Shown here one piece after another: positions 3,213 through 30,849 of a stretch of 36,183 bases of DNA; the stretch's first letter is position 1; each line of letters opens with the position of its first letter. The stretch lies in the IMG/VR virus record IMGVR_UViG_2551306525_000009. One strand, written 5' to 3'. The position numbers were made by a program, and so were the translations under genes. This DNA comes from a virus. Its lineage: Duplodnaviria; Heunggongvirae; Uroviricota; Caudoviricetes. Under the pieces are notes generated by a model. It did not search any database. It saw only the letters and a program-made list of their open reading frames with translations, and was not told the origin of the DNA.

Positions 3213-3724
3213 TGGCTGTGCCAAAACATCTTCGCTTTTTTACGCTGTTTGTGGATGGTGAAAACGAAGTGGGTAAGGTGACGTCCGTCACTCTGCCCAA
3301 ACTGACGCGCAAAACCGACAGCTACCGGGGTGGTGGCATGATGGGGGCGGTAAGTATTGATCTCGGTCTGGACGACTCCGCGCTTGATGCGAGCTTTGTC
3401 ATGGGGGGCGCAGTTCGTGAGCTGTTCCTTAAGTATGGCGGCACGATTGACGGCACGCTGCTGCGTTTTGCGGGTGAATACTACACCGATGCAGAAAGCG
3501 ACCTGTATGAAGTCGAAATGCGCGGACGTGTGACGGAAATTGATATGGGGGAAGCCAAACAGGGCGAAGCCACATCACACACTTACGCCATTAAAAACAC
3601 CTACTACAAGCTGAGTGTTAACGATCGTCCGTTGTGGGAGATTGACCTGCTGAACTTCATTTACCGGAAGGACGGCAAGGACATTGTGCCCGATCGCATC
3701 CGTTCCGCGCTTGGGCTTGGCTGA
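3212..3724 (+). CDS. FII: tail tube protein FII
   Basis: 170 aa, immediately downstream of sheath; P2 FII-like. Confidence 0.85.
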   Translation: MAVPKHLRFFTLFVDGENEVGKVTSVTLPKLTRKTDSYRGGGMMGAVSIDLGLDDSALDASFVMGGAVRELFLKYGGTIDGTLLRFAGEYYTDAESDLYEVEMRGRVTEIDMGEAKQGEATSHTYAIKNTYYKLSVNDRPLWEIDLLNFIYRKDGKDIVPDRIRSALGLG

Positions 3725-3778
3725 TAAGTAATATGCAGGCGGCGCAGTGCGTCGCCTCTGACTGAAAGGAGTTTCCTG

Positions 3779-4144
3779 ATGAAAGAGACGAAAAACATCG
3801 ATACCGAAAACACGGTAGTTGCTGACACTGTGAAAGAAACCAGTGAGCGTGGCGTAAAACTTACCCAACCCATTGAGCGAGGCGGCGAAAAAATCATGTA
3901 TGTGGAGATCACCGGGGCTATTGAGCAGGCTGGATCTCTGCGAGATTTGTCGCTGTCTGATGTGCTGAATCTGAAAGCGGAATCCATGTTTACGCTGCTG
4001 TCACGCGTGACATCACCGCGACTGGATGAAGTGACGATCAAAAAAATGGCATCCCGTGACTTTATTCAGTTATGTGTGGTTGCCGTAAATTTTTTGAGCG
4101 GTGCGGACTCTGGCGGGAAGAACGAACAGGCGACGGAAGCCTGA
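3779..4144 (+). CDS. E: tail assembly chaperone E
   Basis: 121 aa ORF between tube and tape measure; contains slippery heptamer near its 3' end. Confidence 0.8.
   Translation: MKETKNIDTENTVVADTVKETSERGVKLTQPIERGGEKIMYVEITGAIEQAGSLRDLSLSDVLNLKAESMFTLLSRVTSPRLDEVTIKKMASRDFIQLCVVAVNFLSGADSGGKNEQATEA
4090..4096 (+). other. programmed -1 ribosomal frameshift slippery heptamer T_TTT_TTG
   Basis: heptamer in the zero frame of E (codons TTT TTG); the -1 frame stays open to 4308. Confidence 0.7.
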
Positions 4145-4308
4145 TCACGGTTGTGTGCTTTGAGCACATAGAAGACTTTGTGGCAGATATTGCCGTTATT
4201 TTTAACTGGTCGCCCGCCGAAATCTTCATGATGACGCCCGGCGAAGTGGTTAGCTGGCGTGAGCGGGCGGCACTTCGCAGCGGGAATGCAGACAATGAAG
4301 ACTCTTGA
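4095..4308 (+). CDS. E': E' extension of the E+E' frameshift product (tail assembly chaperone fusion)
   Basis: -1 frame from slippery site translates ERCGLWREERTGDG...NEDS, equal to the ORF-track 4072..4308 frame; conserved E/E' (lambda G/GT-like) arrangement. Confidence 0.7.
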
Positions 4309-7102
4309 TATCCGGGTCGCTTTCAGCGCCGTTGACAGGCTGACCCGACCTGCCGAAAACGCCCGCCGCCTGATGGGGCAGTTTGGTGACTCCATCCAGC
4401 GAACGCAGGGGGCGATCAAAAATCTCGAGCGTCAGGCGCGTTCATTTGAGCGCGCCCGCGACGCTGTCAGTAAAGCGGATGCGGGTATCGTGAAAGCGCG
4501 ACGCCAGCTTAACGCCCTTAATCAGTTACAACGCACGGGTACAGTGCTCAGCGAAAAACAACAAAAGCTGATGCAGCAGTTAAGCACCCGGCTTGAACGC
4601 CTGAATGAATCGCGCACACGGGAAATTCAGAAAATGCGGGAGCTTGGCGGAGAGCTGAAACGCCACGGCATTTCCCTGACAGGCAGCGATAACACCATCC
4701 AGCAGGCCATCAGACGCACCGAACAGTACAACAACCAGCTTGAACGCGAACGGCAGGCGCTTGCGCGTGTAACGCGGGCGCGTGAGCGGTATTCGCGCGT
4801 GCAGGAAACCGCGGGAAAACTGAAAACAGGTGGTGCGCTGGCAATTGGTGCGGCAGCGGCTGGCGGCTATGCTGCCGGGCGTTTTTTGCAGCCTGCGATC
4901 GGGTTCGGCAAAGAGATGTCCCGCGTTCAGGCACTGACGCGAATCGACCAGAACAGCCCGCAGTTTAAGGCGCTGCGTGAGCAGGCGTTAAAACTTGGCT
5001 CTGAAACGCAGTTCACCGCAGGCGATGCCGCCAGTGGGCAGGCATTTCTTGCAATGGCTGGCTTCACTCCGCAGGCCATTCAGGCTGCGCTTCCCGGCGT
5101 GCTGAGCATGGCAACGGCTGGCGGCATGGATCTCGGCGAGACGGCGGATATTGGCTCAAATATCCTGACGCAGTTCGGCCTTTCTGCTGACCAGATGGAC
5201 CGGGTCGGTGACACACTCACCGCAGCGTTTACCCGTACCAACACTGACCTTCGCGCACTGGGCGAAACCATGAAATATGCAGGTCCGGTTGCGGGTAAGC
5301 TGGGAATATCGCTGGAGCAGGCCGCAGCGATGGCTGGCGTGCTGGCGAATATGGGCATCAGAGGGAGTGATGCCGGGACGGCAATGCGTGCCAGCCTGGC
5401 TCGTCTGGCATCACCGCCAAAGGCAGCAGCAGAGGCGCTGAAAGAGCTTGGTGTGGCAGTCTCTGACGCGAACGGCAAAATGCGCCCGATGGAGGATGTG
5501 CTGGCCGACCTTTATAAAGCCACCCGCAAATACGGGGAAGTTGACCGGGTATCGTTCTTTAAGGACATTGCCGGGGAAGAGGCTTTCACATCGTTTATGG
5601 CGCTCGTTGATGCAGCGGGTGACGGTTCCTTACCTAAACTGAGAAAAGAACTTGAAGGCGCGCGCGGTGAGGCTGAACGCACAGCAAAGGTCATGGCCAA
5701 CAACCTTGACGGCGATCTGAAATCACTCGGCAGTGCATGGGAAGGGTTGCGCATCCGCATTGCAGATCTGATTGACGGTCCGCTGCGTTCTGTCACGCAG
5801 TGGCTCACGCGGGTGGTATCAAGGGTGACGGCGCTGGCGCAGGCCCATCCGGCACTGACGCGCCAGCTACTGATAGCAGGCGGTGCGTTGCTGGCAATGA
5901 CTGCAACGGTTGGCTCGTTGTCGCTGGCTATTGGTGTGCTTGCTGGTCCGCTGGCAAAACTGCGTCTTGGTTTTTCTCTCCTGACCGGATCAATGAATGC
6001 TGTCAGGGTCCTGCCAGCACTATGGGGAATGGTGACGGGTTCCGTTTCTTTACTGGGAGGCGCTATCGGGGCGCTGTTCAGCCCGGTTGGTCTTATCGTG
6101 GCTGCGCTTGCCGGAGCTGCCGTCCTTATCTGGAAATACTGGGATCCCATCAGGGCATTTTTTGCCGGGGTGTTCAGCGGGATTATGGAAAGGCTGACCC
6201 CGTTGCGCGAAACCTTTGAACGGTTTGGTCCTGTTTTTGACGCAATCGGAAGCGGGATAAGCCAGGTGTTTAACTGGTTTAAATCGCTGCTGTCACCGAT
6301 GGAGTCCAGCAAGGAAACGCTGGATAAATGTACCAGTGCTGGCGAGATATTCGGTAACGTTCTTGGCGGTGCGTTACAACTTGTTCTGACACCTGCAAAA
6401 ATGTTGCTGGATACGCTGGCGTGGATACTTGAAAAGCTCGGTGTGCTTCCGGATGAAGCGGAAAGGGCGCGCAAGAAAATCGAAGACGCACAGCGTGCGG
6501 CCATTCTTCAGGACAAGGTTGCCTGGCTTCAGGGGGACCTGGCGAAAATCAATCCGCCGAAGCCTGTGGAAAATGGCAATGGCACCGGAGGTGATAAACC
6601 CAAAGACAACAAACCACTCACAGACAGCAATACCGGTACGCTACGCAGACTCAGCAAAATTGCTGATAACACAGGTAAGCTGGTTGATGAGACGAAAAAA
6701 CGCATTGGCCCCGGCGATATTGTCTTTAAGAACCTGCCCCGCGCACTTGCTGTTCGTGGGGAGTGGCAGGAGCGGAAGATTGCGCAGGTCAGTAAGCCTG
6801 CTTCCGCAATCAATATCACACCCGTGGTCCAGACTCCTCTTCCTCCGGCGCTGGTCCCTGTTGTTGCGGCCAGCTCCCGCCCGGTGGCGGAGGCCATACG
6901 ATCGCCAGTGGCATCAGTTCCTGCAACTTCCCGTAACCGGGAGCCTGTTGTCTCCGGATTTGGCGGTGAAATTCATGTTCATCTGCATAACGTTGTTACG
7001 CAGAATCCCCGCGAACTGGCGAAACTGGTCGGTGAAATGGTCAGGGCAGAGGTGGAACGGCGTGCTCGTGCCGGACGTGGCAGTTTTTACGATAAAGATT
7101 GA
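4286..7102 (+). CDS. T: tail tape measure protein T
   Basis: ~940 aa, coiled-coil N-terminal region, hydrophobic Gly/Ala-rich central segment; between E' and U; start uncertain (GTG 4259, ATG 4286 or 4295). Confidence 0.85.
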   Translation: MQTMKTLDIRVAFSAVDRLTRPAENARRLMGQFGDSIQRTQGAIKNLERQARSFERARDAVSKADAGIVKARRQLNALNQLQRTGTVLSEKQQKLMQQLSTRLERLNESRTREIQKMRELGGELKRHGISLTGSDNTIQQAIRRTEQYNNQLERERQALARVTRARERYSRVQETAGKLKTGGALAIGAAAAGGYAAGRFLQPAIGFGKEMSRVQALTRIDQNSPQFKALREQALKLGSETQFTAGDAASGQAFLAMAGFTPQAIQAALPGVLSMATAGGMDLGETADIGSNILTQFGLSADQMDRVGDTLTAAFTRTNTDLRALGETMKYAGPVAGKLGISLEQAAAMAGVLANMGIRGSDAGTAMRASLARLASPPKAAAEALKELGVAVSDANGKMRPMEDVLADLYKATRKYGEVDRVSFFKDIAGEEAFTSFMALVDAAGDGSLPKLRKELEGARGEAERTAKVMANNLDGDLKSLGSAWEGLRIRIADLIDGPLRSVTQWLTRVVSRVTALAQAHPALTRQLLIAGGALLAMTATVGSLSLAIGVLAGPLAKLRLGFSLLTGSMNAVRVLPALWGMVTGSVSLLGGAIGALFSPVGLIVAALAGAAVLIWKYWDPIRAFFAGVFSGIMERLTPLRETFERFGPVFDAIGSGISQVFNWFKSLLSPMESSKETLDKCTSAGEIFGNVLGGALQLVLTPAKMLLDTLAWILEKLGVLPDEAERARKKIEDAQRAAILQDKVAWLQGDLAKINPPKPVENGNGTGGDKPKDNKPLTDSNTGTLRRLSKIADNTGKLVDETKKRIGPGDIVFKNLPRALAVRGEWQERKIAQVSKPASAINITPVVQTPLPPALVPVVAASSRPVAEAIRSPVASVPATSRNREPVVSGFGGEIHVHLHNVVTQNPRELAKLVGEMVRAEVERRARAGRGSFYDKD

Positions 7103-20804: not shown

Positions 20805-22556
20805 ATGATTCAGGACGCTTTTGTGCGCCAGCGTGCGCGGCAACTTTACTGGCAGGGTTATCCGCCCGCAGAAATATCACGTCTGATGGGAATAAACCCG
20901 AACACGATTTATGCGTGGAAAAAACGTGACCAGTGGGATGAAACGCCACCCGTGCAGCGTGTCACGCAGTCCATCGATGCGCGCCTCATCCAGCTTACTG
21001 AAAAACAGAATAAAACAGGCGGTGACTTTAAGGAAATAGACCTGCTGACCCGGCAGCTTAAAAAACTGCATGATGGCCAGCCGGATGCGACGGCCACAGG
21101 AAAGAAAGGCCGGGCGAAAAAACTCAAAAATCATTTCACGCCGGAACAGATTGCCGCACTGCGGGAAAAAATCATCAGCAGGCTGGAGTGGCATCAGCGG
21201 GGCTGGTTTGACGCCCTGACCCTTTGCAGGGAAGCCGGGATACGTAACAGGATGATCCTGAAATCCCGACAGATTGGGGCGACCTGGTATTTTGCACAGG
21301 AAGCACTGCTGATGGCGCTGCGTGACGATGTGGCGCAACCTTACCAGCGTAACCAGATTTTTTTGTCTGCGTCGCGTCGTCAGGCGTTCCAGTTTAAAAG
21401 CATTATTCAGAAGGCCGCGGCTGAAGTTGATGTGGAGCTGAAAGGGGGCGATAAAATCATCCTCTCCAACGGCGCAGAGCTGCATTTTCTCGGCACTTCT
21501 GCTGCGTCGGCACAGTCCTATACGGGCAATTTTTATTTTGATGAATTTTTCTGGGTCAGTCGCTTTGCTGAACTGCGCAAGGTGGCTGGCGCTATGGCAA
21601 CCCTCAGCGGACTGCGGCGCACCTACTTCTCCACGCCATCCACCGAAACGCACGAGGCATACGCCTACTGGAACGGCGACCGCTGGAACGAGAAAAAGGC
21701 CTCGCATAAACGCCAGCGTTTTTCTGTGGACTGGGAAACGCTGCATAACGGACTTATCTGCCCTGACCGGACGTGGCGGCAAATTGTCACGCTGGAAGAT
21801 GTGGTTAATCACGGCTGGAAACACACCGATATTGATGAAATTCGTGATGAAAACACCGAAGACGAGTTCCGCAATCTCTATATGTGTGAGTTTGTCCGCG
21901 AAGGGGAATCGGCATTTAACCTGAATATCCTGATTGGCTGCGGTGTTGACGGATACGACGACTGGAAAGACTGGAAACCTTTTGCTCCCCGCCCGATGGG
22001 GAATCGTCCGGTATGGATTGGGTATGACGCAAACGGCAGCAGTGGCAACGGCGACAGCGGCGCGGTGTCCGTGGTGGTTCCTCCGGCTGTTCCTGGTGGC
22101 CGTTTTCGAACGGTGGAGACGCGACGCGTTCAGGGGCTGGAGTTTGAAGAACAGGCCAGAGTCATTGAAGAGTTCACGTGTCGCTACAACGTGGAACACA
22201 TCGGCATTGATGTGACGGGTGGGAACGGGGAGGCTGTTTATCAGATAGTGAAACGGTTTTTCCCTGCTGCTATTCCGTACACCTTCACGCTGTCATCAAA
22301 ACGGTCGCTGGTACTGAAAATGCTGCAAATAATGCGTGCCGGGCGGTGGGAATACGATCGCGCCGAACGCGAGCTGGTCGCGGCCTTTAACGCCGTGCGT
22401 AAGGTGAAAACACCGGGCGGCTTTATCACTTACGAAACGGACCGCGCGAGGGGGATCAGCCACGGCGACCTTGCGTGGGCAACCATGCTTGCTGTCATTA
22501 ACGAACCGATTGGCGGCGAAGGAGAAAACGAGCGTTTCACGGTTATGGAGTTCTGA
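20805..22556 (+). CDS. P: terminase large (ATPase) subunit P
   Basis: 583 aa; divergent from O as in P2. Confidence 0.9.
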   Translation: MIQDAFVRQRARQLYWQGYPPAEISRLMGINPNTIYAWKKRDQWDETPPVQRVTQSIDARLIQLTEKQNKTGGDFKEIDLLTRQLKKLHDGQPDATATGKKGRAKKLKNHFTPEQIAALREKIISRLEWHQRGWFDALTLCREAGIRNRMILKSRQIGATWYFAQEALLMALRDDVAQPYQRNQIFLSASRRQAFQFKSIIQKAAAEVDVELKGGDKIILSNGAELHFLGTSAASAQSYTGNFYFDEFFWVSRFAELRKVAGAMATLSGLRRTYFSTPSTETHEAYAYWNGDRWNEKKASHKRQRFSVDWETLHNGLICPDRTWRQIVTLEDVVNHGWKHTDIDEIRDENTEDEFRNLYMCEFVREGESAFNLNILIGCGVDGYDDWKDWKPFAPRPMGNRPVWIGYDANGSSGNGDSGAVSVVVPPAVPGGRFRTVETRRVQGLEFEEQARVIEEFTCRYNVEHIGIDVTGGNGEAVYQIVKRFFPAAIPYTFTLSSKRSLVLKMLQIMRAGRWEYDRAERELVAAFNAVRKVKTPGGFITYETDRARGISHGDLAWATMLAVINEPIGGEGENERFTVMEF

Positions 22557-23602
22557 TGAGCAGAAAAAATAAAAAAGTGCGCATGAGTTCACGCATTGAT
22601 CTCGCTGATGCGCTCAGGAAAGAATCATCGCTCAGTGCATTCACATTTGATGGTCCTTATCGCCTGACCGGGCATGACCTGCTGGACAATATGTACTGTG
22701 CTGATAACGGGCGGTGGTATGAAACCCCGGTGGACTGGTACGGTCTGGCAAGAGCCGCCCGGCAAACGTCCTGGCATCAGTCTGCGCTTTACTTTAAGCG
22801 CAATGTATTGCTCGGTTGCTACATCCCGCACCCGCTGCTTTCCCGGCAGGATTTCTCGGCGCTGGCGCTGGACTGGTTTGTGTTCGGTAACGCATTCCTT
22901 GAGCTTCGAAGCAATATGCTCAGCGAACCGCTAAAATTACGGCACGCCCTGGCGAAATACATGCGACGCGGAAGCGATCTTGAATCATGGTGGTATGTGC
23001 AGGATGGCAAGGATGCGTTTCAGTTTCGCCCAGGCAAAGTGTGCCACCTGATGAATCCGGATATTAACCAGGAAATCTACGGCATGCCGGAATATCTCGG
23101 CGCATTACTCTCGGCCAGCCTGTCTCATTCGGCGGACATGTTCAGAAAACTGTATTACGACAACGGATCCCACGCCGGGTGCATCATCTACATCGGTGCA
23201 GCGCAGGTAAACCGCGAAAGCATGGACTCCCTGAAAGAAACGCTACAGGGTGCGCGTGGTGGTGGTGCGTTTAAAAACGTGCTCATTCATGCGCCCAACG
23301 GGGGCAAAGAGGGGGTGCAAATTTTGCCGTTCCAGCAGATCACCGCAAAGGATGAGTTCATGAATGTTAAGGCGGCATCCCGTGATGATGTGCTGGCTGC
23401 GCACCGCGTTCCGCCGCAACTGATGGGGGCGATGCCGGGTGAAAAAAGTGCGTTTGGTGATGTGGAGAAGGCCGCGCGGGTTTACGCAATTAACGAGCTG
23501 ATGCCCGTCATGGAGGCCATGAAGCACATCAATGACTGGCTTGGCGAAGAGGTGATCCGCTTTAACCCTTATGCACTGCTGGACACCCAGCCCACATCCT
23601 GA
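22556..23602 (+). CDS. Q: portal protein Q
   Basis: 348 aa; start overlaps P stop (TGATG). Confidence 0.85.
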   Translation: MSRKNKKVRMSSRIDLADALRKESSLSAFTFDGPYRLTGHDLLDNMYCADNGRWYETPVDWYGLARAARQTSWHQSALYFKRNVLLGCYIPHPLLSRQDFSALALDWFVFGNAFLELRSNMLSEPLKLRHALAKYMRRGSDLESWWYVQDGKDAFQFRPGKVCHLMNPDINQEIYGMPEYLGALLSASLSHSADMFRKLYYDNGSHAGCIIYIGAAQVNRESMDSLKETLQGARGGGAFKNVLIHAPNGGKEGVQILPFQQITAKDEFMNVKAASRDDVLAAHRVPPQLMGAMPGEKSAFGDVEKAARVYAINELMPVMEAMKHINDWLGEEVIRFNPYALLDTQPTS

Positions 23603-23629
23603 CGCGCTTCGCTTGTCTGCTGCTTCGCC

Positions 23630-23652
23630 GGGGCATAAAAAATTTATGCCCC
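23630..23652. other. hairpin 28 bp after Q (GGGGCATAAA-aaa-TTTATGCCCC)
   Basis: 10-bp perfect stem read directly; no U-tract, function unknown. Confidence 0.4.
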
Positions 23653-23932
23653 GACTCTCCAGCTCCTGTATCAGTCAGATAATTTCACGACGCTTTCCTG
23701 CTTATTGCCATCATCGACGGTCAGATTCTTACGCAATCCCACCGCGTTAACTGCATGTTCTCGCCGCCTCAGTGCGATTTTGACGGCCTTACCTTTCACC
23801 CCATCAAATCAAAAGCCCTCACGTCTTTTTCACGCTCAGCGTGAGAAATACAGCCATTCTGTTGTGTTGCTGCGACATCGTTCAGGGGATGCTATTTACC
23901 CCCTGAAACGCGGGCTGTTCCCCCGTCACCTG

Positions 23933-23956
23933 CGCGCAGAAAAAGCGCGTTTTTTT
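23933..23956 (+). terminator. rho-independent terminator (CGCGC-agaaaaa-GCGCG followed by T7)
   Basis: GC stem plus seven T read directly; could stop read-through from the P-Q operon. Confidence 0.5.
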
Positions 23957-24026
23957 GTGCACGCACGGATCCTTGACGGATCCAGCCGCCATGCGGGCCG
24001 GAAGGGTAAAAAGTCGTTCAAAAAAA

Positions 24027-24053
24027 TTGTGCAAATTTGTGCACTATTGTGCA
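24027..24053. repeat. three direct TTGTGCA repeats at 10-bp phasing (TTGTGCAAAT TTGTGCACTA TTGTGCAAC)
   Basis: read directly; helical-turn spacing suggests a protein-binding array. Confidence 0.5.
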
Positions 24054-24070
24054 ACAGAGAAAGAAGGCCA

Positions 24071-24102
24071 GGAAGAAAGAAAAGCCGCCTTCAAAAGGCA
24101 GC
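24071..24102 (-). terminator. rho-independent terminator closing the leftward accessory operon
   Basis: minus strand reads GCTGCCTT-ttga-AGGCGGC then TTTTCTTTCTTCC, 43 nt after the 24145 stop. Confidence 0.6.
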
Positions 24103-24144
24103 TTTTCAGATTAGTAAGGGATTGATAGATAGTCGTCGCAAAAC

Positions 24145-24525
24145 TCAAAAAGAAGACTGGAACTCTTCTGCTCTGCGCTCAATTTCTGCCATGTAGGATG
24201 TACGGGCTAACTCATGCGCATTGGGTGTCATAATGCTGATTAGCTGATACTTATCTGGATATAAGAAATGGCGGGAGTAAACAAGATAACTGTTTGATTT
24301 ACGCGAGGCGGCAGGTAGCTTTGCAGGCCACGGCTGTTCATCAGGTAAACGAATGTGAATCTTAAAAACAAAAGAATCACGAAGACGCCCGCTATCTTCC
24401 CACTGCCCTTCGTTGCCAAAGACTGAGGGTAAAGATCCGCCGTTTTTCCATGACTGCAAAGCATGTGCATATTTGCGAGCAACTGCGGGGAGTTCTATGT
24501 CATTGTGGACAGAGACTTTAATCAT
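24145..24525 (-). CDS. YafO-like toxin-domain protein
   Basis: 126 aa; C-terminal LISIMTPNAHELAR...AEEF resembles E. coli YafO (LIAILKPEPHKLAR...AEAF, from memory); also SLPSVFG vs VLPDIFG and SYLVYS vs AHLVYC. Confidence 0.5.
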   Translation of the reverse strand: MIKVSVHNDIELPAVARKYAHALQSWKNGGSLPSVFGNEGQWEDSGRLRDSFVFKIHIRLPDEQPWPAKLPAASRKSNSYLVYSRHFLYPDKYQLISIMTPNAHELARTSYMAEIERRAEEFQSSF

Positions 24526-24534
24526 GGCCCTGCC

Positions 24535-25128
24535 TTAATGGAACGTTGGATCTTTAAGGCCCAGCTTTTTATGTTCACTGCGGATAAGTGCGCGAACCTG
24601 ATCGGCGGTAACACCCAGATCAGCATCTGAAGTTTTCTTCGGCACATGCGTGCTTTCAATGAAGGATAAAATATCTTCAATCGTATAGCGGAGCGTCGCA
24701 GCGGAACGAGCAAAAGCGACAATCTCTTTTCTCAGTTCCGCGTTACTTTCAGGTACGCTTTTCAGCGCAACCCTTGCAGCCTCGACAAAACTTGCACATA
24801 CCGCAATATGACGGAAAAGGCTTTCAAACCCTTCCTGAGTCTCTTTTTTCTGATTTTTCAGAATAATAGGGATCTGCTTTTCTTCCCATTCGATGCGAAG
24901 GTTTGCCCTGTGTGTCTTCATCCTATCAGCCAGGTTAAGCATATAACTGGTGGCCTCATCAATAGGAAGGTATGCCACAGAATCCTTTACGTCCTGGAGG
25001 GATAGCGTAGACGTACTGTGCCGGGAGATTGATAAGTCATGATGCACAATGCTACTGGCAGGAACAGGGGCGAGAGCCACCGCCAGCGCTGCGGCCATAG
25101 ATGTTATTTTATTTTTTTTACTGCTCAT
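24535..25128 (-). CDS. hypothetical protein, 197 aa, N-terminus resembles a signal peptide or TM anchor (MSSKKNKITSMAAALAVALAPVPASS)
   Basis: ORF with GGAAAGG RBS; 9 nt upstream of the YafO-like gene; not recognisable as YafN/RelB-type antitoxin. Confidence 0.55.
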   Translation of the reverse strand: MSSKKNKITSMAAALAVALAPVPASSIVHHDLSISRHSTSTLSLQDVKDSVAYLPIDEATSYMLNLADRMKTHRANLRIEWEEKQIPIILKNQKKETQEGFESLFRHIAVCASFVEAARVALKSVPESNAELRKEIVAFARSAATLRYTIEDILSFIESTHVPKKTSDADLGVTADQVRALIRSEHKKLGLKDPTFH

Positions 25129-25217
25129 AATTGCCTTTCCTGCCAATAATCGTGAACCACTGCCGGAATGATAGCGCAAAAAATCACCCGCTGAAACGAA
25201 TTATCCTTGCGGCAAAA

Positions 25218-25304
25218 CTAGCCCGCGTCAACCTCATACCACGCCAGCGTCGATTGATAGTTTTGTGCCGCCTCGCGTAATGCCTGATAGTCAATTTTGC
25301 TCAC
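25218..25304 (-). CDS. putative 28-aa micro-ORF (VSKIDYQALREAAQNYQSTLAWYEVDAG), GTG start overlapping upstream stop
   Basis: AGGAGG 7 nt upstream of GTG; GTGA overlap with stop of the 174-aa gene; identified manually. Confidence 0.3.
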   Translation of the reverse strand: MSKIDYQALREAAQNYQSTLAWYEVDAG

Positions 25305-25825
25305 TGGTTGCCTCCTTTGTGTTGCGTCAGCTCTTCCTGCGCCTGCATCATGCGATTGACCTGAATGCGTGTGCGTCGAACGGCAAAATTAAATTGAAAC
25401 ATGAGCCGGAACATTTCTGAGGCTTCCGTGTGAGCATCATGGAGAGGTGACAGGCGGTACAGTTCTGCCTCCGTAGCTTGTTGAATCAATGACAGATCAA
25501 ATTGAAGTGCGGGTCTGGTACATTTTGCACTTCTGGCAGCAAGCTCCGGCATCAGTTTCTTAACGAAGGTGTTTTGCACCGCTTTGTTGAGTTGTGTCTG
25601 CATCCAAATCGCAAATTTCAGCGAACGCATAAGTTTGATAGCCTCGGGCAGCGGCAGATAGATCATGCTGGTAGATTTGGGTGGTTGGTGAATCATCTTC
25701 ACGGATACGCGATTTCGCAGCGTTCGGAAAATCGTGTTCCCAACAACAGCTTCTACGGATACAGGACAGGGAGCCAGACCAGCCCGCAGTGCTTCTTTCA
25801 TTGGCATGTATTCGTATTTTTTCAT
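25301..25825 (-). CDS. hypothetical protein, 174 aa
   Basis: ORF with GAGGA RBS; no family recognised. Confidence 0.55.
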   Translation of the reverse strand: MKKYEYMPMKEALRAGLAPCPVSVEAVVGNTIFRTLRNRVSVKMIHQPPKSTSMIYLPLPEAIKLMRSLKFAIWMQTQLNKAVQNTFVKKLMPELAARSAKCTRPALQFDLSLIQQATEAELYRLSPLHDAHTEASEMFRLMFQFNFAVRRTRIQVNRMMQAQEELTQHKGGNQ

Positions 25826-25885: not shown

Positions 25886-26221
25886 TCATTCATGCGTTTT
25901 TTCTTCATGGTCTGTCACTTCTCCCCTGATAATTTCATTGCACAAATCCACGCACTCATTGCAGATGTAAACAGACGGTCCGGCAATCACCTTTATGACT
26001 TCGTGCTGGGATTTATTGCAGAAGCTGCAATAAATCGTCTTCTTGCCTGAAGTCCATGTTTTGCTGATTTCGCCAGACATCAGTTGCTTGATGTCTTTTT
26101 CACGACGAAGAACTATCTGGCCACATTCAGCTATTTTTTGGATGTTGACATTTTCTTCTTTCGCCAGCGCTTCCATTCGCTCAATCAGTCGCTGCGCTTT
26201 TTCTCTGTCAATGTGTTGCAT
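25886..26221 (-). CDS. small protein with ClpX-type C4 zinc-binding domain (ZBD) at its C-terminus
   Basis: [39 protein letters not shown] is near-identical to the E. coli ClpX N-terminal ZBD ([39 protein letters not shown], from memory); GGGGG RBS. Confidence 0.8.
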
Positions 26222-26284: not shown

Positions 26285-26596
26285 TTATTCGGGAAATAAC
26301 GCCCGGATATTTCTGGCCATCTGACTGGTTATCTGTGCGGTTGATACTGGCTGTGACGCGGGGCGTTCTGTCCTGGTTTGTGTCACCGATAACGCCTCAT
26401 CGTCAGCCCATGCAGCCAGTCGGTAAGCCTCTGCCGGATTCATTTTCAGAAGTGCCAGCCCGGCCAGAAAAGCCACGCGTTGGCCGCTTTTGCGGGCTTC
26501 TGGTGTAAGGCTGTCCAGCCAGGCGCATGCTTCGCCTTCGTTCTTGACGGCGGCGGGCTTCAGATAGAAACTTATCCGTCTGGTTGGTGTCGTCAT
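26285..26596 (-). CDS. parR: ParR-like ribbon-helix-helix centromere-binding protein
   Basis: RRISFYLKP...LDSLTPEARKSGQRVAFLAGLALLKMNP...IRALFPE parallels plasmid R1 ParR (from memory); AGGAG RBS. Confidence 0.7.
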   Translation of the reverse strand: MTTPTRRISFYLKPAAVKNEGEACAWLDSLTPEARKSGQRVAFLAGLALLKMNPAEAYRLAAWADDEALSVTQTRTERPASQPVSTAQITSQMARNIRALFPE

Positions 26597-26600
26597 TGGT

Positions 26601-27560
26601 TTACTCCTTGTCCATTGCGTACAGCCCATTAACCAGAGCAAACTGTGGCACCCCGTCCGCGATGAAAGTCGCATTAACTCCGCAGGCTTCGCGGATAGCG
26701 GGTGCCACAATCTCCGCCCCTCCACCGACAACCATCACCCGCCCGTAACCCGAAAAACCCGCCAGCGCGCGGATCACGCGTTGTTTCAGTGTTTCTTCCT
26801 TTTCACGAATAACCTCCATCAGGCTGGCGTAATGCGCGTCATTGTGGATGTGCTGGCGCAGCCAGGCTTCATTATGGCGATGTTCGATAATGGTATTGGC
26901 GATGTGGTGACTGGTGCGCATACCGTTAGTGGCCATCACCGACAGTACGGCATCGGCCATCAGAGAAACGCCTACGTGTGGATCGCAAAACACCTGGCTG
27001 ATACCTGCCAGTTGCCCCTGAACCTTTGCCACATCCAGCGTGGTTCCGCCCAAATCTACAATCAGCAGGGATTCAAACGGACTCATGTCAGCCAGTGCCT
27101 TAAAGCCAGCCGGAATGGATTCAGGCATAACCCGCACGTTACGGATAGTGAATGCTTCGCCGTTCTGGTACTCCACCGGGCGCATAACGTTCGCTTTTTT
27201 GCGGTTGATGTTGGCCATGTCCGGCTGTGCGTTTGTGTCGAAATACTCGCTCAGTGGCAGGGTGACAACCACATCCACCTCCTGTGGCGTGATGCCTGAT
27301 TTGACCAGCGCGTGATGAATGGCAATGACATTCACATCGCTGTACTGGTATTGCGTGTCGGTCGTCTGGACAAAGCGATCGCTGACCGGATCAAAACCAT
27401 AGCGCACGCCATCAAGCATGTAGTTCGCAGGCTGCGAGCCACCGAACGGCGCAGACCATTCCGACTTGAAGCTGTTCGGGCTGATGGCGTTGCGGCGTTC
27501 GCCGTTCTCAGTCCATGCCAGCTTGATGTTGGTGGAGCCGTCGTCGATACAAATTTTCAT
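26601..27560 (-). CDS. parM: ParM/StbA-family actin-like segregation ATPase
   Basis: MKICIDDGSTNIKL (phosphate-1), LIVDLGGTTLDV (phosphate-2), VVGGGAEIV (adenosine) motifs; 319 aa. Confidence 0.8.
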   Translation of the reverse strand: MKICIDDGSTNIKLAWTENGERRNAISPNSFKSEWSAPFGGSQPANYMLDGVRYGFDPVSDRFVQTTDTQYQYSDVNVIAIHHALVKSGITPQEVDVVVTLPLSEYFDTNAQPDMANINRKKANVMRPVEYQNGEAFTIRNVRVMPESIPAGFKALADMSPFESLLIVDLGGTTLDVAKVQGQLAGISQVFCDPHVGVSLMADAVLSVMATNGMRTSHHIANTIIEHRHNEAWLRQHIHNDAHYASLMEVIREKEETLKQRVIRALAGFSGYGRVMVVGGGAEIVAPAIREACGVNATFIADGVPQFALVNGLYAMDKE

Positions 27561-27596: not shown

Positions 27597-27627
27597 GGGA
27601 TTCTGAAATCCCGTTTTTGCCTGTTTT
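27597..27627. repeat. repeat unit 1: GGGATTctgaAATCCCGTTTTTGCCTGTTTT (internal 6-bp palindrome), between parM start and A stop
   Basis: read directly; second near-identical copy 74 bp away. Confidence 0.6.
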
Positions 27628-30463
27628 ATGCGCGCTTCATATATCGCGGCGCGTTTTTTTGCTCATTTATGGGATTTGTGAATCCCGTTTCTGTCTGTTT
27701 TTTGTTTCCACTGGTCAGGCCACCCCGCAGCAGGTCTGCTTTGCGGCGGGCGCGTTCAGTGGTTTCACTGATTCTCTGTGCGTGCTCTGCGTCGCGGATG
27801 GCGCGCAGCATGTCAGAAAGCACGGTAACGGGTGTTTTCATGGTGTTCTGGTCCTGCTGAAGTGTGGATGCCAGGCGTGCGGCGGCTTCAGGGTCTGATG
27901 CCCCCAGCTGTGCCAGATAGCTGGCGACCGGGTTATGGCGGATCTCCGTGCTGCTTACATCGTGATTACGGCTCAGGCGCTGCCAGAGCTGCGTGATTCG
28001 GCTGTCCGGGCGGGTATCCGGTTTGCGTACAATTTCAAATCCCTGCGGTGCAATGATGCTGCCGTCAACGTACAGACTGCCGCCCCGTAACAGGTGCTGC
28101 ATCTGTTGTTCACCGATATGCAGGCCAAGGGATTCAGCAGACTCCCGCCATTCTTTAGCGAGTAATTCGTGGTTATCAGGCAAAGGCCGCTGCTGTTTGC
28201 GGCTCTGTGTCCAGCTCTGCATTTCATCACTGTTGTTTTTTGCCTGTTTGTCACGCAGCGAACGCATCAGCGCCCGGCGTTCGTGCCGTTTCAGTGAGTG
28301 CAGCCATTCGTTCACTTCAACACCGTCAGGGATCTGCGGCCACGGTGCTGGCCGTTCTTCCGGCTGTTCTGTCCCGTTGTTGTCCGTTTCCTGTACACGG
28401 GGACAGTTATTGCCACGAGTCCAAGGGGCGGCAGGGCCGCCCTGAAGGTCAAAACCATTTTCGCGGGCGCTGTCTTCCGCTTCCGGTTTACGTCTTACCA
28501 GCTTCCAGTTATCCGGATGCGTGCACACACGGGAGGATTCCCCGATGAGTGGTGACCAGATCCCGTAAATCTGTACGCTCTGTTCGCCGTAATCGTTCAG
28601 CTCATCGGCGAGGTCGTAGGCGGTGCGAATCAGGTAGTCCTTGCGTGGAACAAGTACGCCGCCCTGTTTCTCTATATAGGTGGCAAAACATCCGGCATCA
28701 GCGGCAGCGAGTACCGCATCCATTGCGTCATCCTTCAGCCGTTGCGGGCCTTCCGGGTTGCGTGCCATCTGGCTGGCAAGGCGGCGGAGTTCACGCCACA
28801 CCTGACGGGAGGGGATGCCAAAGAACTGGAACTGGCGGACCCGGTGAAGGCGCGCCCAGCCGATGGCGCGCTCCACGCTCTCGGCCATTGATTTTCCGGT
28901 TTCGTGGTCAACGCGTGGTTTGCCCGTTTTCGGGTCGATGCCATCCACGGCGCGGCTGTCCAGGTTCTTTCCGATGTAGGTGGCGATGTAGCTGGTTGGC
29001 GTGCCTTTTGAGCCGTCTACATACTCCGCCTTAAAGCGCGGAGTAATATCATCACCCAGCTCGTGACGATCTTCCTGAATGGCAATATCGCGGGTGTGGG
29101 ACACAATGGTGTCGATTTCTTCCGGATGGGCAAAGACCATCATATGCCAGTGTACGGTGCCGTCATGGTGAGGCTCCACCGTGCGGATGCCATACCAGCG
29201 CAGGCCGTCGCGGTTCAGTTTTTTGCGGACCGCCGCAAAAAACGTGTTAACCAGGTAGTCGCTGGAGTCGCGCATGGTGGCCCCGTTCCATTTGGGGTTC
29301 GGATGACCGTTCTCCGTTGTTGCGTGGTATTTTGACGGGCAGGTGACAGTCAGAAACACCGCTTTGTCACCACGGGCTTCGGCCAGAAGTTCCAGCCCCT
29401 TCATGGTGGCCATCATTTCTGCCTTACGGTGAACCGGGTTACTTACTCCCGCGTAATACACTGTCTCGAGATCAATCGTGAACCCGTCTTCGTTTTCCAG
29501 CATGAAACTTTTCAGGAAATCGCGTGTTTTCTCGCGCTGTGCGCGAAACTCGCTTAACGCGTCCTGGCTCAGATAAGGCGATGTTTTTCTGGAAACCAGA
29601 CAGGCGGCGCGGAGTTGTTCTTCTCTCCACTCGCAACGTAACAGCCACAGTTTGCGTTTCCACCAGTCCGCACAGGTCAGGCGAAGGATTGCGCCCGGCA
29701 GCAGTTCCGTATCCGGTTCGCTCTTGTTCAGGGCTTCGTAATGTGGCGGCATGATGTGCAGGCGTAATGCGATACGAGCCAGCATCCGGTAAGCCTTCAA
29801 CATTACATCCATGGTCAGCTCGCCATCTCTGGCACCAAAGCCATCGCAGAGTGTTTCGAAGGTGCTGCTGAACATCGCCGCGGTCATGGTGGCCAGCGTC
29901 TGTATCTGGTGCTTGTTGAGCTGCGGCAGGTAAAGCAAATCGTCCAGGCGTTCGCGCCCGGCAAGGGAGCGATAACCCGGTGTCAGCCAGCGTCCGTCAG
30001 TGCGATCCAGACGTTCGAATATTTTGCGCAGGGGTCCGCGTGCATAGCGTTCCGCCTGCCAGCTCTTTTTACCTTTCTGGCGATCGGCTTCCTGTTTTTT
30101 GCGCAGGAAAGAGAGGTGGCGGCTCAGTGGTTCACGCAGATAAACAGGTAGTGCCTTTAGTGTGGCAAAGGCACGGGCTACCGGGTCTTGTTCTGTTGCC
30201 CGGCGCTTACTGATGATGCTCTGTGCCAGCTTTTCACGCTGTCCGGCTTCCTCAAGGGATGCCATGAGTTTTTTACCCATGGCGGATTGTGCGAAAAAGG
30301 CTTCTTCCTTCGCTTCCTGTTCTTCCTGTGCCCTTTTGTCCGCCTCAAGGTAGTAACGGATGGCGCGTTGCAGGTCGGTTTCAGTTTCCTGCCTGCGCTC
30401 CGTAAATCTGGCCGGATCAATGGCTGGCCGTGGTTCATTCCAGCTCCATGCAAACTCGCTCAT
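27626..30463 (-). CDS. A: replication initiation protein A (rolling-circle initiator, P2 gpA family)
   Basis: TVTCPSKYH, VEPHHDGTVHWHMMVF and YIATYIGKN active-site blocks as in P2/186 gpA; start either ATG 30463 (ATGA-coupled) or GTG 30490. Confidence 0.85.
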   Translation of the reverse strand: MSEFAWSWNEPRPAIDPARFTERRQETETDLQRAIRYYLEADKRAQEEQEAKEEAFFAQSAMGKKLMASLEEAGQREKLAQSIISKRRATEQDPVARAFATLKALPVYLREPLSRHLSFLRKKQEADRQKGKKSWQAERYARGPLRKIFERLDRTDGRWLTPGYRSLAGRERLDDLLYLPQLNKHQIQTLATMTAAMFSSTFETLCDGFGARDGELTMDVMLKAYRMLARIALRLHIMPPHYEALNKSEPDTELLPGAILRLTCADWWKRKLWLLRCEWREEQLRAACLVSRKTSPYLSQDALSEFRAQREKTRDFLKSFMLENEDGFTIDLETVYYAGVSNPVHRKAEMMATMKGLELLAEARGDKAVFLTVTCPSKYHATTENGHPNPKWNGATMRDSSDYLVNTFFAAVRKKLNRDGLRWYGIRTVEPHHDGTVHWHMMVFAHPEEIDTIVSHTRDIAIQEDRHELGDDITPRFKAEYVDGSKGTPTSYIATYIGKNLDSRAVDGIDPKTGKPRVDHETGKSMAESVERAIGWARLHRVRQFQFFGIPSRQVWRELRRLASQMARNPEGPQRLKDDAMDAVLAAADAGCFATYIEKQGGVLVPRKDYLIRTAYDLADELNDYGEQSVQIYGIWSPLIGESSRVCTHPDNWKLVRRKPEAEDSARENGFDLQGGPAAPWTRGNNCPRVQETDNNGTEQPEERPAPWPQIPDGVEVNEWLHSLKRHERRALMRSLRDKQAKNNSDEMQSWTQSRKQQRPLPDNHELLAKEWRESAESLGLHIGEQQMQHLLRGGSLYVDGSIIAPQGFEIVRKPDTRPDSRITQLWQRLSRNHDVSSTEIRHNPVASYLAQLGASDPEAAARLASTLQQDQNTMKTPVTVLSDMLRAIRDAEHAQRISETTERARRKADLLRGGLTSGNKKQTETGFTNPINEQKNAPRYMKRA
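27671..27701. repeat. repeat unit 2: GGGATTtgtgAATCCCGTTTCTGTCTGTTTT, inside the 3' coding end of gene A
   Basis: read directly; candidate parC-like centromere/operator or part of the replication origin. Confidence 0.6.
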
Positions 30464-30849
30464 GGCTGGTATCCCGTCACGCGCTGCCACTCCTGCGAGA
30501 AGATGGCGGAAAGGCGGTTAAATTCAGCGGTGTATTCACTCAGCGAGGCACACCCGCCAGCAGTGCGATGCGCCAGCATTGCCGCGAATACGGAGGCCGG
30601 GGAGTCGTAATACGCCAGCAGTGATTCGCCGTGTGGTGTCAGGCAGTGCAACGCCAGCCCGTGTGGTGTGAAGTCCACGCGGTAGCAGTCGTCTACTGTG
30701 AAATAAAGGGTGTCCGCATTCTCCGGTTTTGTAGTGCGTGCTCTGTTGTCACGACCACGGATGTAAAGATCAAATAATCCCTGAAGAACGGGAGCCAGAC
30801 GGGTGTCCTGTGTGCGCACCCATCTTGTGAAGTCATGAGCGTCAATCAT
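30460..30849 (-). CDS. hypothetical protein, 129 aa, stop overlapping A start
   Basis: ORF translationally coupled to A. Confidence 0.5.
   Translation of the reverse strand: MIDAHDFTRWVRTQDTRLAPVLQGLFDLYIRGRDNRARTTKPENADTLYFTVDDCYRVDFTPHGLALHCLTPHGESLLAYYDSPASVFAAMLAHRTAGGCASLSEYTAEFNRLSAIFSQEWQRVTGYQP

Follow-up and report, generated by a model that had tools for sequence, protein, structure and literature searches.

The stretch analysed here (the window) is IMG/VR virus record IMGVR_UViG_2551306525_000009 at its full length of 36,183 nucleotides (nt), a P88-like prophage (Xuanwuvirus, Peduoviridae; P2-family). Between positions 24145 and 25128 its minus strand carries a two-gene module made of a YafO-family toxin gene and, directly upstream, the gene for a protein of 197 amino acids (aa), hereafter the partner. 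The features of the pair are, in window coordinates:

24145..24525, minus strand: YafO-family toxin gene, 126 aa; putative mRNA endoribonuclease of RelE/BECR fold, the effector of the pair
24526..24534, minus strand: spacer of 9 nt (GGCAGGGCC) from the partner stop to the toxin ATG, with Shine-Dalgarno-like purines for the toxin
24535..25128, minus strand: partner gene, 197 aa; new small protein family, presumed cognate neutraliser (antitoxin)
24538..24606, minus strand: partner codons 175-197, C-terminal helix and tail VRALIRSEHKKLGLKDPTFH; candidate toxin-contact element
25051..25128, minus strand: partner codons 1-26, Sec-type signal-peptide-like segment MSSKKNK ITSMAAALAVALA PVPASS; putative cleavage after A-S-S

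Both open reading frames (ORFs) lie on the minus strand where an earlier reading of the letters alone (the sequence-only reading) had put them, with the same 9-nt gap; they are co-oriented and share one frame. The partner ATG is directly preceded by AGGAAAGG and its gene ends in TAA, and the short spacer with the toxin's Shine-Dalgarno-like purines is consistent with translational coupling of the two genes.

The YafO-family toxin and its partner

The suspicion of a YafO-like toxin is borne out by a hidden Markov model search, in which the 126-aa protein matches Pfam PF13957 (YafO_toxin) with 95.5 bits (E 2.3e-27; curated cut-off 25 bits). The similarity is not limited to the terminal motif block first described, and instead runs over residues 25-123 of 126, corresponding to profile positions 2-100 of 101. 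Since the score against NF007377, the NCBIfam equivalog model for K-12 YafO, is 59.4 bits and thus under the cut-off of 153, the toxin is a member of the family but no equivalog or orthologue of K-12 YafO, with which it shares 34% identity. All residues that are invariant in an alignment taking in K-12 YafO as well as the Photorhabdus and Pasteurellaceae branches (G37, H57, I58, R75, L81, V82, P101, H104 and E120) are kept, and the structure check proposed for the protein yields the predicted RelE/BECR fold of the RelE/HigB/YafQ toxins; a PDB sequence search with the YafO family returned zero matching chains. Judged by its sequence and by its predicted fold, the 126-aa protein is a bona fide, non-orthologous YafO-family member of RelE fold, and likeness to K-12 YafO makes it probably an mRNA endoribonuclease, the ribosome dependence of YafO being debated in the literature. 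RefSeq names the product of the identical gene in E. coli CDE6306 'type II toxin-antitoxin system YafO family toxin' (WP_000598767.1).

The product of the identical partner gene in the same strain is a 'hypothetical protein' (WP_000095653.1), and neither the 197-aa protein nor any of the 24 family members scanned has a significant match in Pfam, NCBIfam, PHROGs or PADLOC. Weak FaeA, CNTF and DUF2868 matches, inconsistent among members, were rejected as noise, and a PDB sequence search with the family found no relative. The claim that the partner is not of RelB/YafN type holds: compared with K-12 YafN by hhalign, the family gives a probability of 0.4%, there is no Phd/YefM match in Pfam either, and a search of the family for helix-turn-helix (HTH), ribbon-helix-helix, AbrB and Phd domains found none, the weak FaeA match (E 0.01) appearing in two of the 24 members. 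The family is small, amounting to 23 clusters in a search of 5.8 billion proteins and to 33 in a profile search of 1.84 billion representatives; none of these 33 exceeds 208 aa or is fused to another domain.

In the AlphaFold2 (AF2) model of the partner (overall predicted local distance difference test score, pLDDT, 71), residues 1-49 are of low confidence or disordered and are followed by predicted helices at 56-84, 95-124 and 130-159; after a linker of low confidence come a further, C-terminal helix at 175-189 (pLDDT 78-90) and a tail. Structure searches with the model returned generic helical bundles as sole matches. Conservation is concentrated in four spots, namely L-A-P-V-P-A at residues 19-24, L-P-I at the start of the bundle, F-G/A-R in helix 3 and the C-terminal EH-K-LG-L-x-x-P-x-F. 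The C-terminal segment (175-197) ranks among the most conserved of the family, and the last 56 residues are the sole region of the partner that still aligns with the Photorhabdus branch (hhalign E 2e-4), whose toxins belong to the YafO family. Conserved out to this most distant branch, the C-terminal helix and tail is the best candidate for contact with the toxin, the L-A-P-V-P segment being the second. Homologues of 55-92 aa, considered as natural C-terminal-only 'mini-antitoxins', were rejected: in L042, the one short match whose flanks were inspected, an undamaged ORF of ~200 codons is present and the short version arose from faulty gene calling, and others are fragments or frameshift fusions.

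The two genes occur together well beyond the window. In each of seven look-ups that started from a homologue of the partner (in E. coli relatives, Erwinia, Serratia, Buttiauxella and further assemblies), a YafO gene of 125-128 aa lies directly downstream, the gene caller having overlooked the toxin once and mis-called the partner once. Conversely, an ORF of 176-223 aa precedes the toxin in 26 of the 27 genome loci that have upstream sequence; in these relatives the spacing to the toxin start ranges from −10 to +11 nt. Among 25 such upstream ORFs tested, phmmer detects homology to the 197-aa partner in 18. The same arrangement is found in all 23 IMG/VR viral contigs carrying such a toxin. A Pantoea plasmid carries a 26%-identical partner beside a YafO gene; with copies in prophage hotspots, at prophage ends and on this plasmid, the genes move together.

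Across the 27 loci, pairwise identities of partner and toxin correlate (Spearman 0.875), with means of 32% for the partner and 53% for the toxin; the partner thus evolves faster and is less conserved, which is the usual pattern of antitoxin and toxin. The pairing of this YafO branch with a partner of ~200 aa is not due to chance. The locus shows two of the marks of a toxin-antitoxin (TA) module of type II, that is, adjacent, co-oriented genes with a very short junction that co-occur independently of genomic context. One genome locus (L033, 3637..4288) differs in having a 97-aa HTH (Xre-like) ORF before a YafO-like ORF and no ~200-aa partner; its toxin match misses the first ~29 residues, and the locus may have exchanged its partner or be a decayed copy.

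The N-terminus of the partner

The resemblance of the partner N-terminus to a signal peptide, already noticed in the single sequence, is real and family-wide. The rules applied, over 59 distinct N-termini, ask that the n-region be basic, that 7-15 residues form a hydrophobic h-region, that a helix breaker be followed by small residues at −3 and −1, and that the mature part carry no positive charge early on. Sec signal-peptide anatomy of this kind is present in every major branch. In most members the n-region has a net charge between +1 and +5, a few being neutral or net negative there; the hydrophobic core measures 10-14 residues and differs in sequence from branch to branch (MAAALAVALA, AAVAAIVASLSAS, MIATFVGALCIS and others). 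The c-region reads P-V-P-A-x-S, within a near-invariant L-A-P-V-P-A; position −3 is A in 49 of the 59 and position −1 is S, A or G in 53, and the 15 residues after the putative cleavage site have a net charge of zero or below in 56. By these rules nearly all members of the family would possess a cleavable Sec signal peptide, and a Phobius signal-peptide call on the same protein is recorded by Rousset et al. 2022 (PMC9122126, Table S5B).

One homologue alone, a distant one of 199 aa (P0102; L046 3001..3600 and L047 241..840), was found to have no YafO neighbour, and its N-terminus is acidic and not hydrophobic; it adjoins hicA/hicB, is located after gpA, in a P2-like hotspot, in L046, and may be an orphaned or repurposed partner.

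A mobile cassette in a prophage hotspot

The pair belongs to a larger transferable unit with its own leader and end:

23897..25237, minus strand: mobile cassette of 1.34 kb, with 89-95% DNA identity to Mixta, Izhakiella and Serratia stretches
25129..25237, minus strand: cassette leader, with a −10-like TATCAT at 25168..25173, 39 nt before the partner ATG
24079..24107, minus strand: intrinsic-terminator-like hairpin with a 13-bp stem, 38 nt past the toxin stop; operon end

The cassette has a GC content of 47%, lower than that of the phage core genes (54-57%) and of the window as a whole (53%). It recurs at about 3289..4629 in each of L013, L014 and L015 (Mixta mediterraneensis, Izhakiella australiensis and Serratia marcescens), amid flanks that differ and are much more diverged, those inspected in Mixta being part of a P2-like prophage; the high identity of the cassette within such surroundings points to recent transfer between genera through the P2 hotspot. 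A trace of its arrival is a chimeric ORF of 28 codons at 25218..25304 (minus strand). It is a recombination scar in which the 5' end of an ead/Ea22-like gene, reduced to its first codons, is joined near 25237 to the final ~20 nt of a methylase-like gene, one that stands ahead of the cassette in Mixta, Izhakiella and Serratia; other P88-like prophages have the ead/Ea22-like gene intact in this position.

The leader is likely to be the cassette's own weak promoter, to judge from its letters: a block of it, TTTTGCGCTATCAT, and the −10-like TATCAT are kept among cassettes (Buttiauxella, Erwinia, L011) with elsewhere just 64-68% identity in DNA, and in Buttiauxella a hairpin followed by a T-run lies ahead of this block. 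A strict sigma-70 scan of the leader found no canonical promoter, and no operator palindrome was found there. The possibility that the cassette hides an RNA or a further gene was also considered and set aside, an Rfam search having returned nothing of relevance.

In the window, the pair is flanked by gpA, the replication gene (27626..30490), on one side and by gpQ, the portal gene (22556..23602), on the other. The order at the locus is ParM, StbB, a ClpX-zinc-finger protein, a 174-aa ORF and then the pair, with the terminator and a cos-proximal spacer before the portal gene. The sequence-only reading had the toxin as the last gene of an island: the pair does stand at the end, followed by terminator and spacer, but what was called an island is the accessory region from gpA to the portal gene in a P88-like prophage. 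This cos-proximal gpA-gpQ region is a recognised P2 anti-phage hotspot (Rousset et al. 2022, Cell Host Microbe, PMC9122126), re-analysed in a 2026 study in Nucleic Acids Research.

The exact gene arrangement is listed in Table S5A of Rousset et al. 2022 (PMC9122126), and Table S5B gives it as system #123, 'YafO_toxin', with 24 occurrences, 'protein 1' in the signal-peptide column (Phobius) and an empty notes column. Both proteins of system #123 are identical, residue for residue, to those of the window, and it occupies the same locus, after StbA, Plasmid_stab_B and zf-C4_ClpX; that study gives a catalogue entry only, with no function, family analysis or mechanism, and the name of the system is absent from its main text. 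Apart from this entry, a literature search found no paper that mentions the accession of either protein, an antitoxin that is exported, or a defence system with YafO. Already known, then, are the toxin family, the TA logic, the hotspot and the pair as a catalogue entry; new are a whole YafO branch with a dedicated, undescribed partner family bearing a conserved export-type N-terminus, and the delimitation of the mobile cassette.

Possible roles of the pair

Toxin identity, systematic adjacency, co-divergence, mobility of the cassette and location in the hotspot together lead us to read partner and toxin as a TA-type module: a mobile unit in which the ~200-aa protein would be the cognate neutraliser, carried as a swappable accessory of P2-like prophages and serving most likely in abortive infection or exclusion, an account to which we give roughly even credence. 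The toxin would cleave mRNA as K-12 YafO does, and the partner, translated first from the shared transcript, would neutralise it by binding through the conserved C-terminal helix and tail, possibly also through L-A-P-V-P. In a lysogen, the pair may serve to abort infection by other phages or to exclude them, and would incidentally work as an addiction module, with the toxin being freed once the supply of partner fails. The sequence-only reading had envisaged an atypical TA or abortive-infection pair with the larger protein as sensor or neutraliser; this is plausible and in keeping with toxin identity, gene order, co-divergence and hotspot, but the export signal speaks against a simple cytoplasmic neutraliser and no defence model was matched.

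A more speculative extension would give the Sec-type signal peptide the role that protease-sensitive tails have in ordinary antitoxins, shortening the life of free partner in the cytoplasm by export, by acting as a hydrophobic degron, or both. In its most specific form the antitoxin would be unstable through export and not through proteolysis: the precursor would silence the YafO RNase, unbound precursor would be drained through Sec and clipped by signal peptidase, and a stop in synthesis, such as host shut-off by a phage, would free the toxin within minutes. We consider the extension, in this form too, unlikely; if true, this form would be a new principle of TA control and a new link between the secretion machinery and abortive infection. 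A functional signal peptide would place a cytoplasmic toxin under control through the export pathway, of which we know of no earlier description, and a non-functional one would be a striking look-alike under strong selection for another role.

Several observations weigh against the neutraliser account or its export component. Signal-peptide character is poor in P0094, P0099, P0103 and the Photorhabdus group, which nevertheless keep L-A-P-V-P, and this weakens the export idea; one such weak-signal-peptide member adjoins an intact toxin gene. The conservation of L-A-P-V-P, far above what is usual for the c-region of a signal peptide, likewise counts against an export signal. If the signal is cleavable, on the other hand, the partner would end up in the periplasm, apart from a cytoplasmic RNase, which is hard to reconcile with direct neutralisation. 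The C-terminal helix is modelled with high confidence and may be part of the bundle and not a free toxin-binding arm. No DNA-binding domain can be recognised in the partner, so that autoregulation of the classic type II kind is not evident. PADLOC-DB v2 matches neither protein and no defence-system model fits; the cassette is rare, occurring in seven of 5426 complete E. coli genomes and always in the same context, and was found in no deposited phage genome.

The conserved motif also bears on an alternative that we regard as possible though clearly less probable, in which the genes form an ordinary cytoplasmic type II TA pair that serves solely for addiction or stabilisation of the prophage region and the N-terminus is a toxin-binding or protease-recognition peptide that happens to resemble an export signal. 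It would suit this alternative that L-A-P-V-P is among the most conserved parts of the partner, that several members keep it despite acidic or neutral n-regions or weak cores, and that the AF2 model pairs residues 19-23 with 51-55 as strands, at low confidence; in addition, the plasmid copy of the pair sits among metabolic genes. What it accommodates poorly is a hydrophobic core that is free in sequence yet constant in character, positions −3/−1 and following charges that obey signal-peptidase rules in about 85-95% of the distinct N-termini, the Phobius call and the preference for a defence hotspot.

At the opposite extreme, the partner could be truly exported and have a role in the envelope, as a superinfection-exclusion factor or a reporter of envelope state, without being a direct antitoxin, the YafO-like protein being otherwise controlled or conditionally active. 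Envelope-acting exclusion proteins are frequent in the accessory loci of P2-like and lambdoid prophages, the signal-peptide features are strong and family-wide, and the mature partner is modelled as a generic helical bundle with neither a DNA-binding domain nor a known antitoxin fold. We nonetheless hold such a role to be improbable. The toxin keeps all family-invariant residues and therefore needs restraint, and no other gene is consistently linked to it; adjacency, coupling and co-divergence, down to about 20-25% partner identity in unrelated contexts, are the behaviour of an interacting pair. No membrane-spanning segment would be left after cleavage to relay a signal inward, and the homologue without a hydrophobic N-terminus is also the one without a YafO neighbour, which ties the two features to each other.

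Rarity in E. coli, absence from deposited phage genomes and the fragments and frameshifted copies in databases (P0109, P0090) could suggest that the pair is an inert or decaying remnant which merely hitch-hikes, its toxin inactive and its function lost, but this is very improbable given that both ORFs are intact in the window and in all seven E. coli genomes (at least 99.4% identity), that purifying selection is clear for both proteins across genera, and that the cassette has recently spread between them.

Like YafN-YafO, the type II TA pair of the E. coli K-12 dinB operon, the proposed TA-type module has a homologous toxin (PF13957, with H57/R75/H104-type residues shared) and an antitoxin-first gene order with a tiny gap; unlike it, it is a mobile prophage cassette and not part of an SOS operon, and YafN is an unrelated antitoxin of 97 aa, half as long as the present partner with its helical bundle and signal-peptide-like N-terminus. 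The RelE/ParE (BECR-fold) toxins of RelBE, HigBA, YafQ-DinJ and YoeB-YefM have no detectable sequence similarity to the present toxin, and their antitoxins are short, cytoplasmic and DNA-binding, in contrast to a partner in which no DNA-binding domain was detected. A precedent for coupling a TA module to protein export through a special segment of the antitoxin is offered by the toxin-antitoxin-chaperone (TAC) systems, in which a HigB/MqsR-type toxin and an antitoxin with a chaperone-addiction tail are joined by a SecB-like chaperone, tying RelE-superfamily TA to the export machinery. TAC systems, which are mentioned in PMC11980606, differ from the present pair, which has no third gene or SecB-like chaperone and whose special segment is N-terminal and resembles a cleavable signal, as opposed to a C-terminal chaperone-binding tail. 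With P2 old, tin and other gpA-gpQ residents the pair shares the locus and the status of non-essential, swappable accessory genes, those of the old/tin type excluding other phages; their proteins and mechanisms are unrelated to the present pair, whose defence role is a proposal.

The interest of the pair lies in the toxin, YafO being among the least understood of the RelE superfamily; in a YafO branch, found mainly in P2-like Enterobacterales prophages, that has no YafN and comes with a dedicated partner of ~200 residues, which implies a new antitoxin family; and in a compact candidate defence system from a hotspot in which many untested gene sets proved antiviral.

The neighbouring genes have features of their own. 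At 26285..27560 (minus strand) lies a plasmid-type partition pair, ParM (319 aa) and StbB (Plasmid_stab_B), in what is an integrated P2-like prophage; no other system is listed more often in the hotspot than ParM/StbB, which is system #1 with 4592 occurrences (Rousset et al. 2022, PMC9122126). The 111-aa protein encoded at 25886..26221 (minus strand) is in essence the N-terminal C4 zinc-finger domain of ClpX alone (PF06689, 63.8 bits; phrog_6797), with no AAA+ ATPase; it is conserved in P88-like phages and could mimic or compete with the substrate- or adaptor-binding domain of ClpX. Beside its gene, and conserved there in P88-like prophages, is the 174-aa ORF at 25301..25825 (minus strand; WP_000759757.1), which has no match in Pfam, NCBIfam, PHROGs or PADLOC. 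Finally, the stretch 23608..23661, just past the portal stop, contains a perfect 11-bp hairpin (23629..23653) and gives an Rfam 'gyrA RNA' match of 22 bits, below the gathering score of 45; the hairpin is most likely the terminator of the portal gene.

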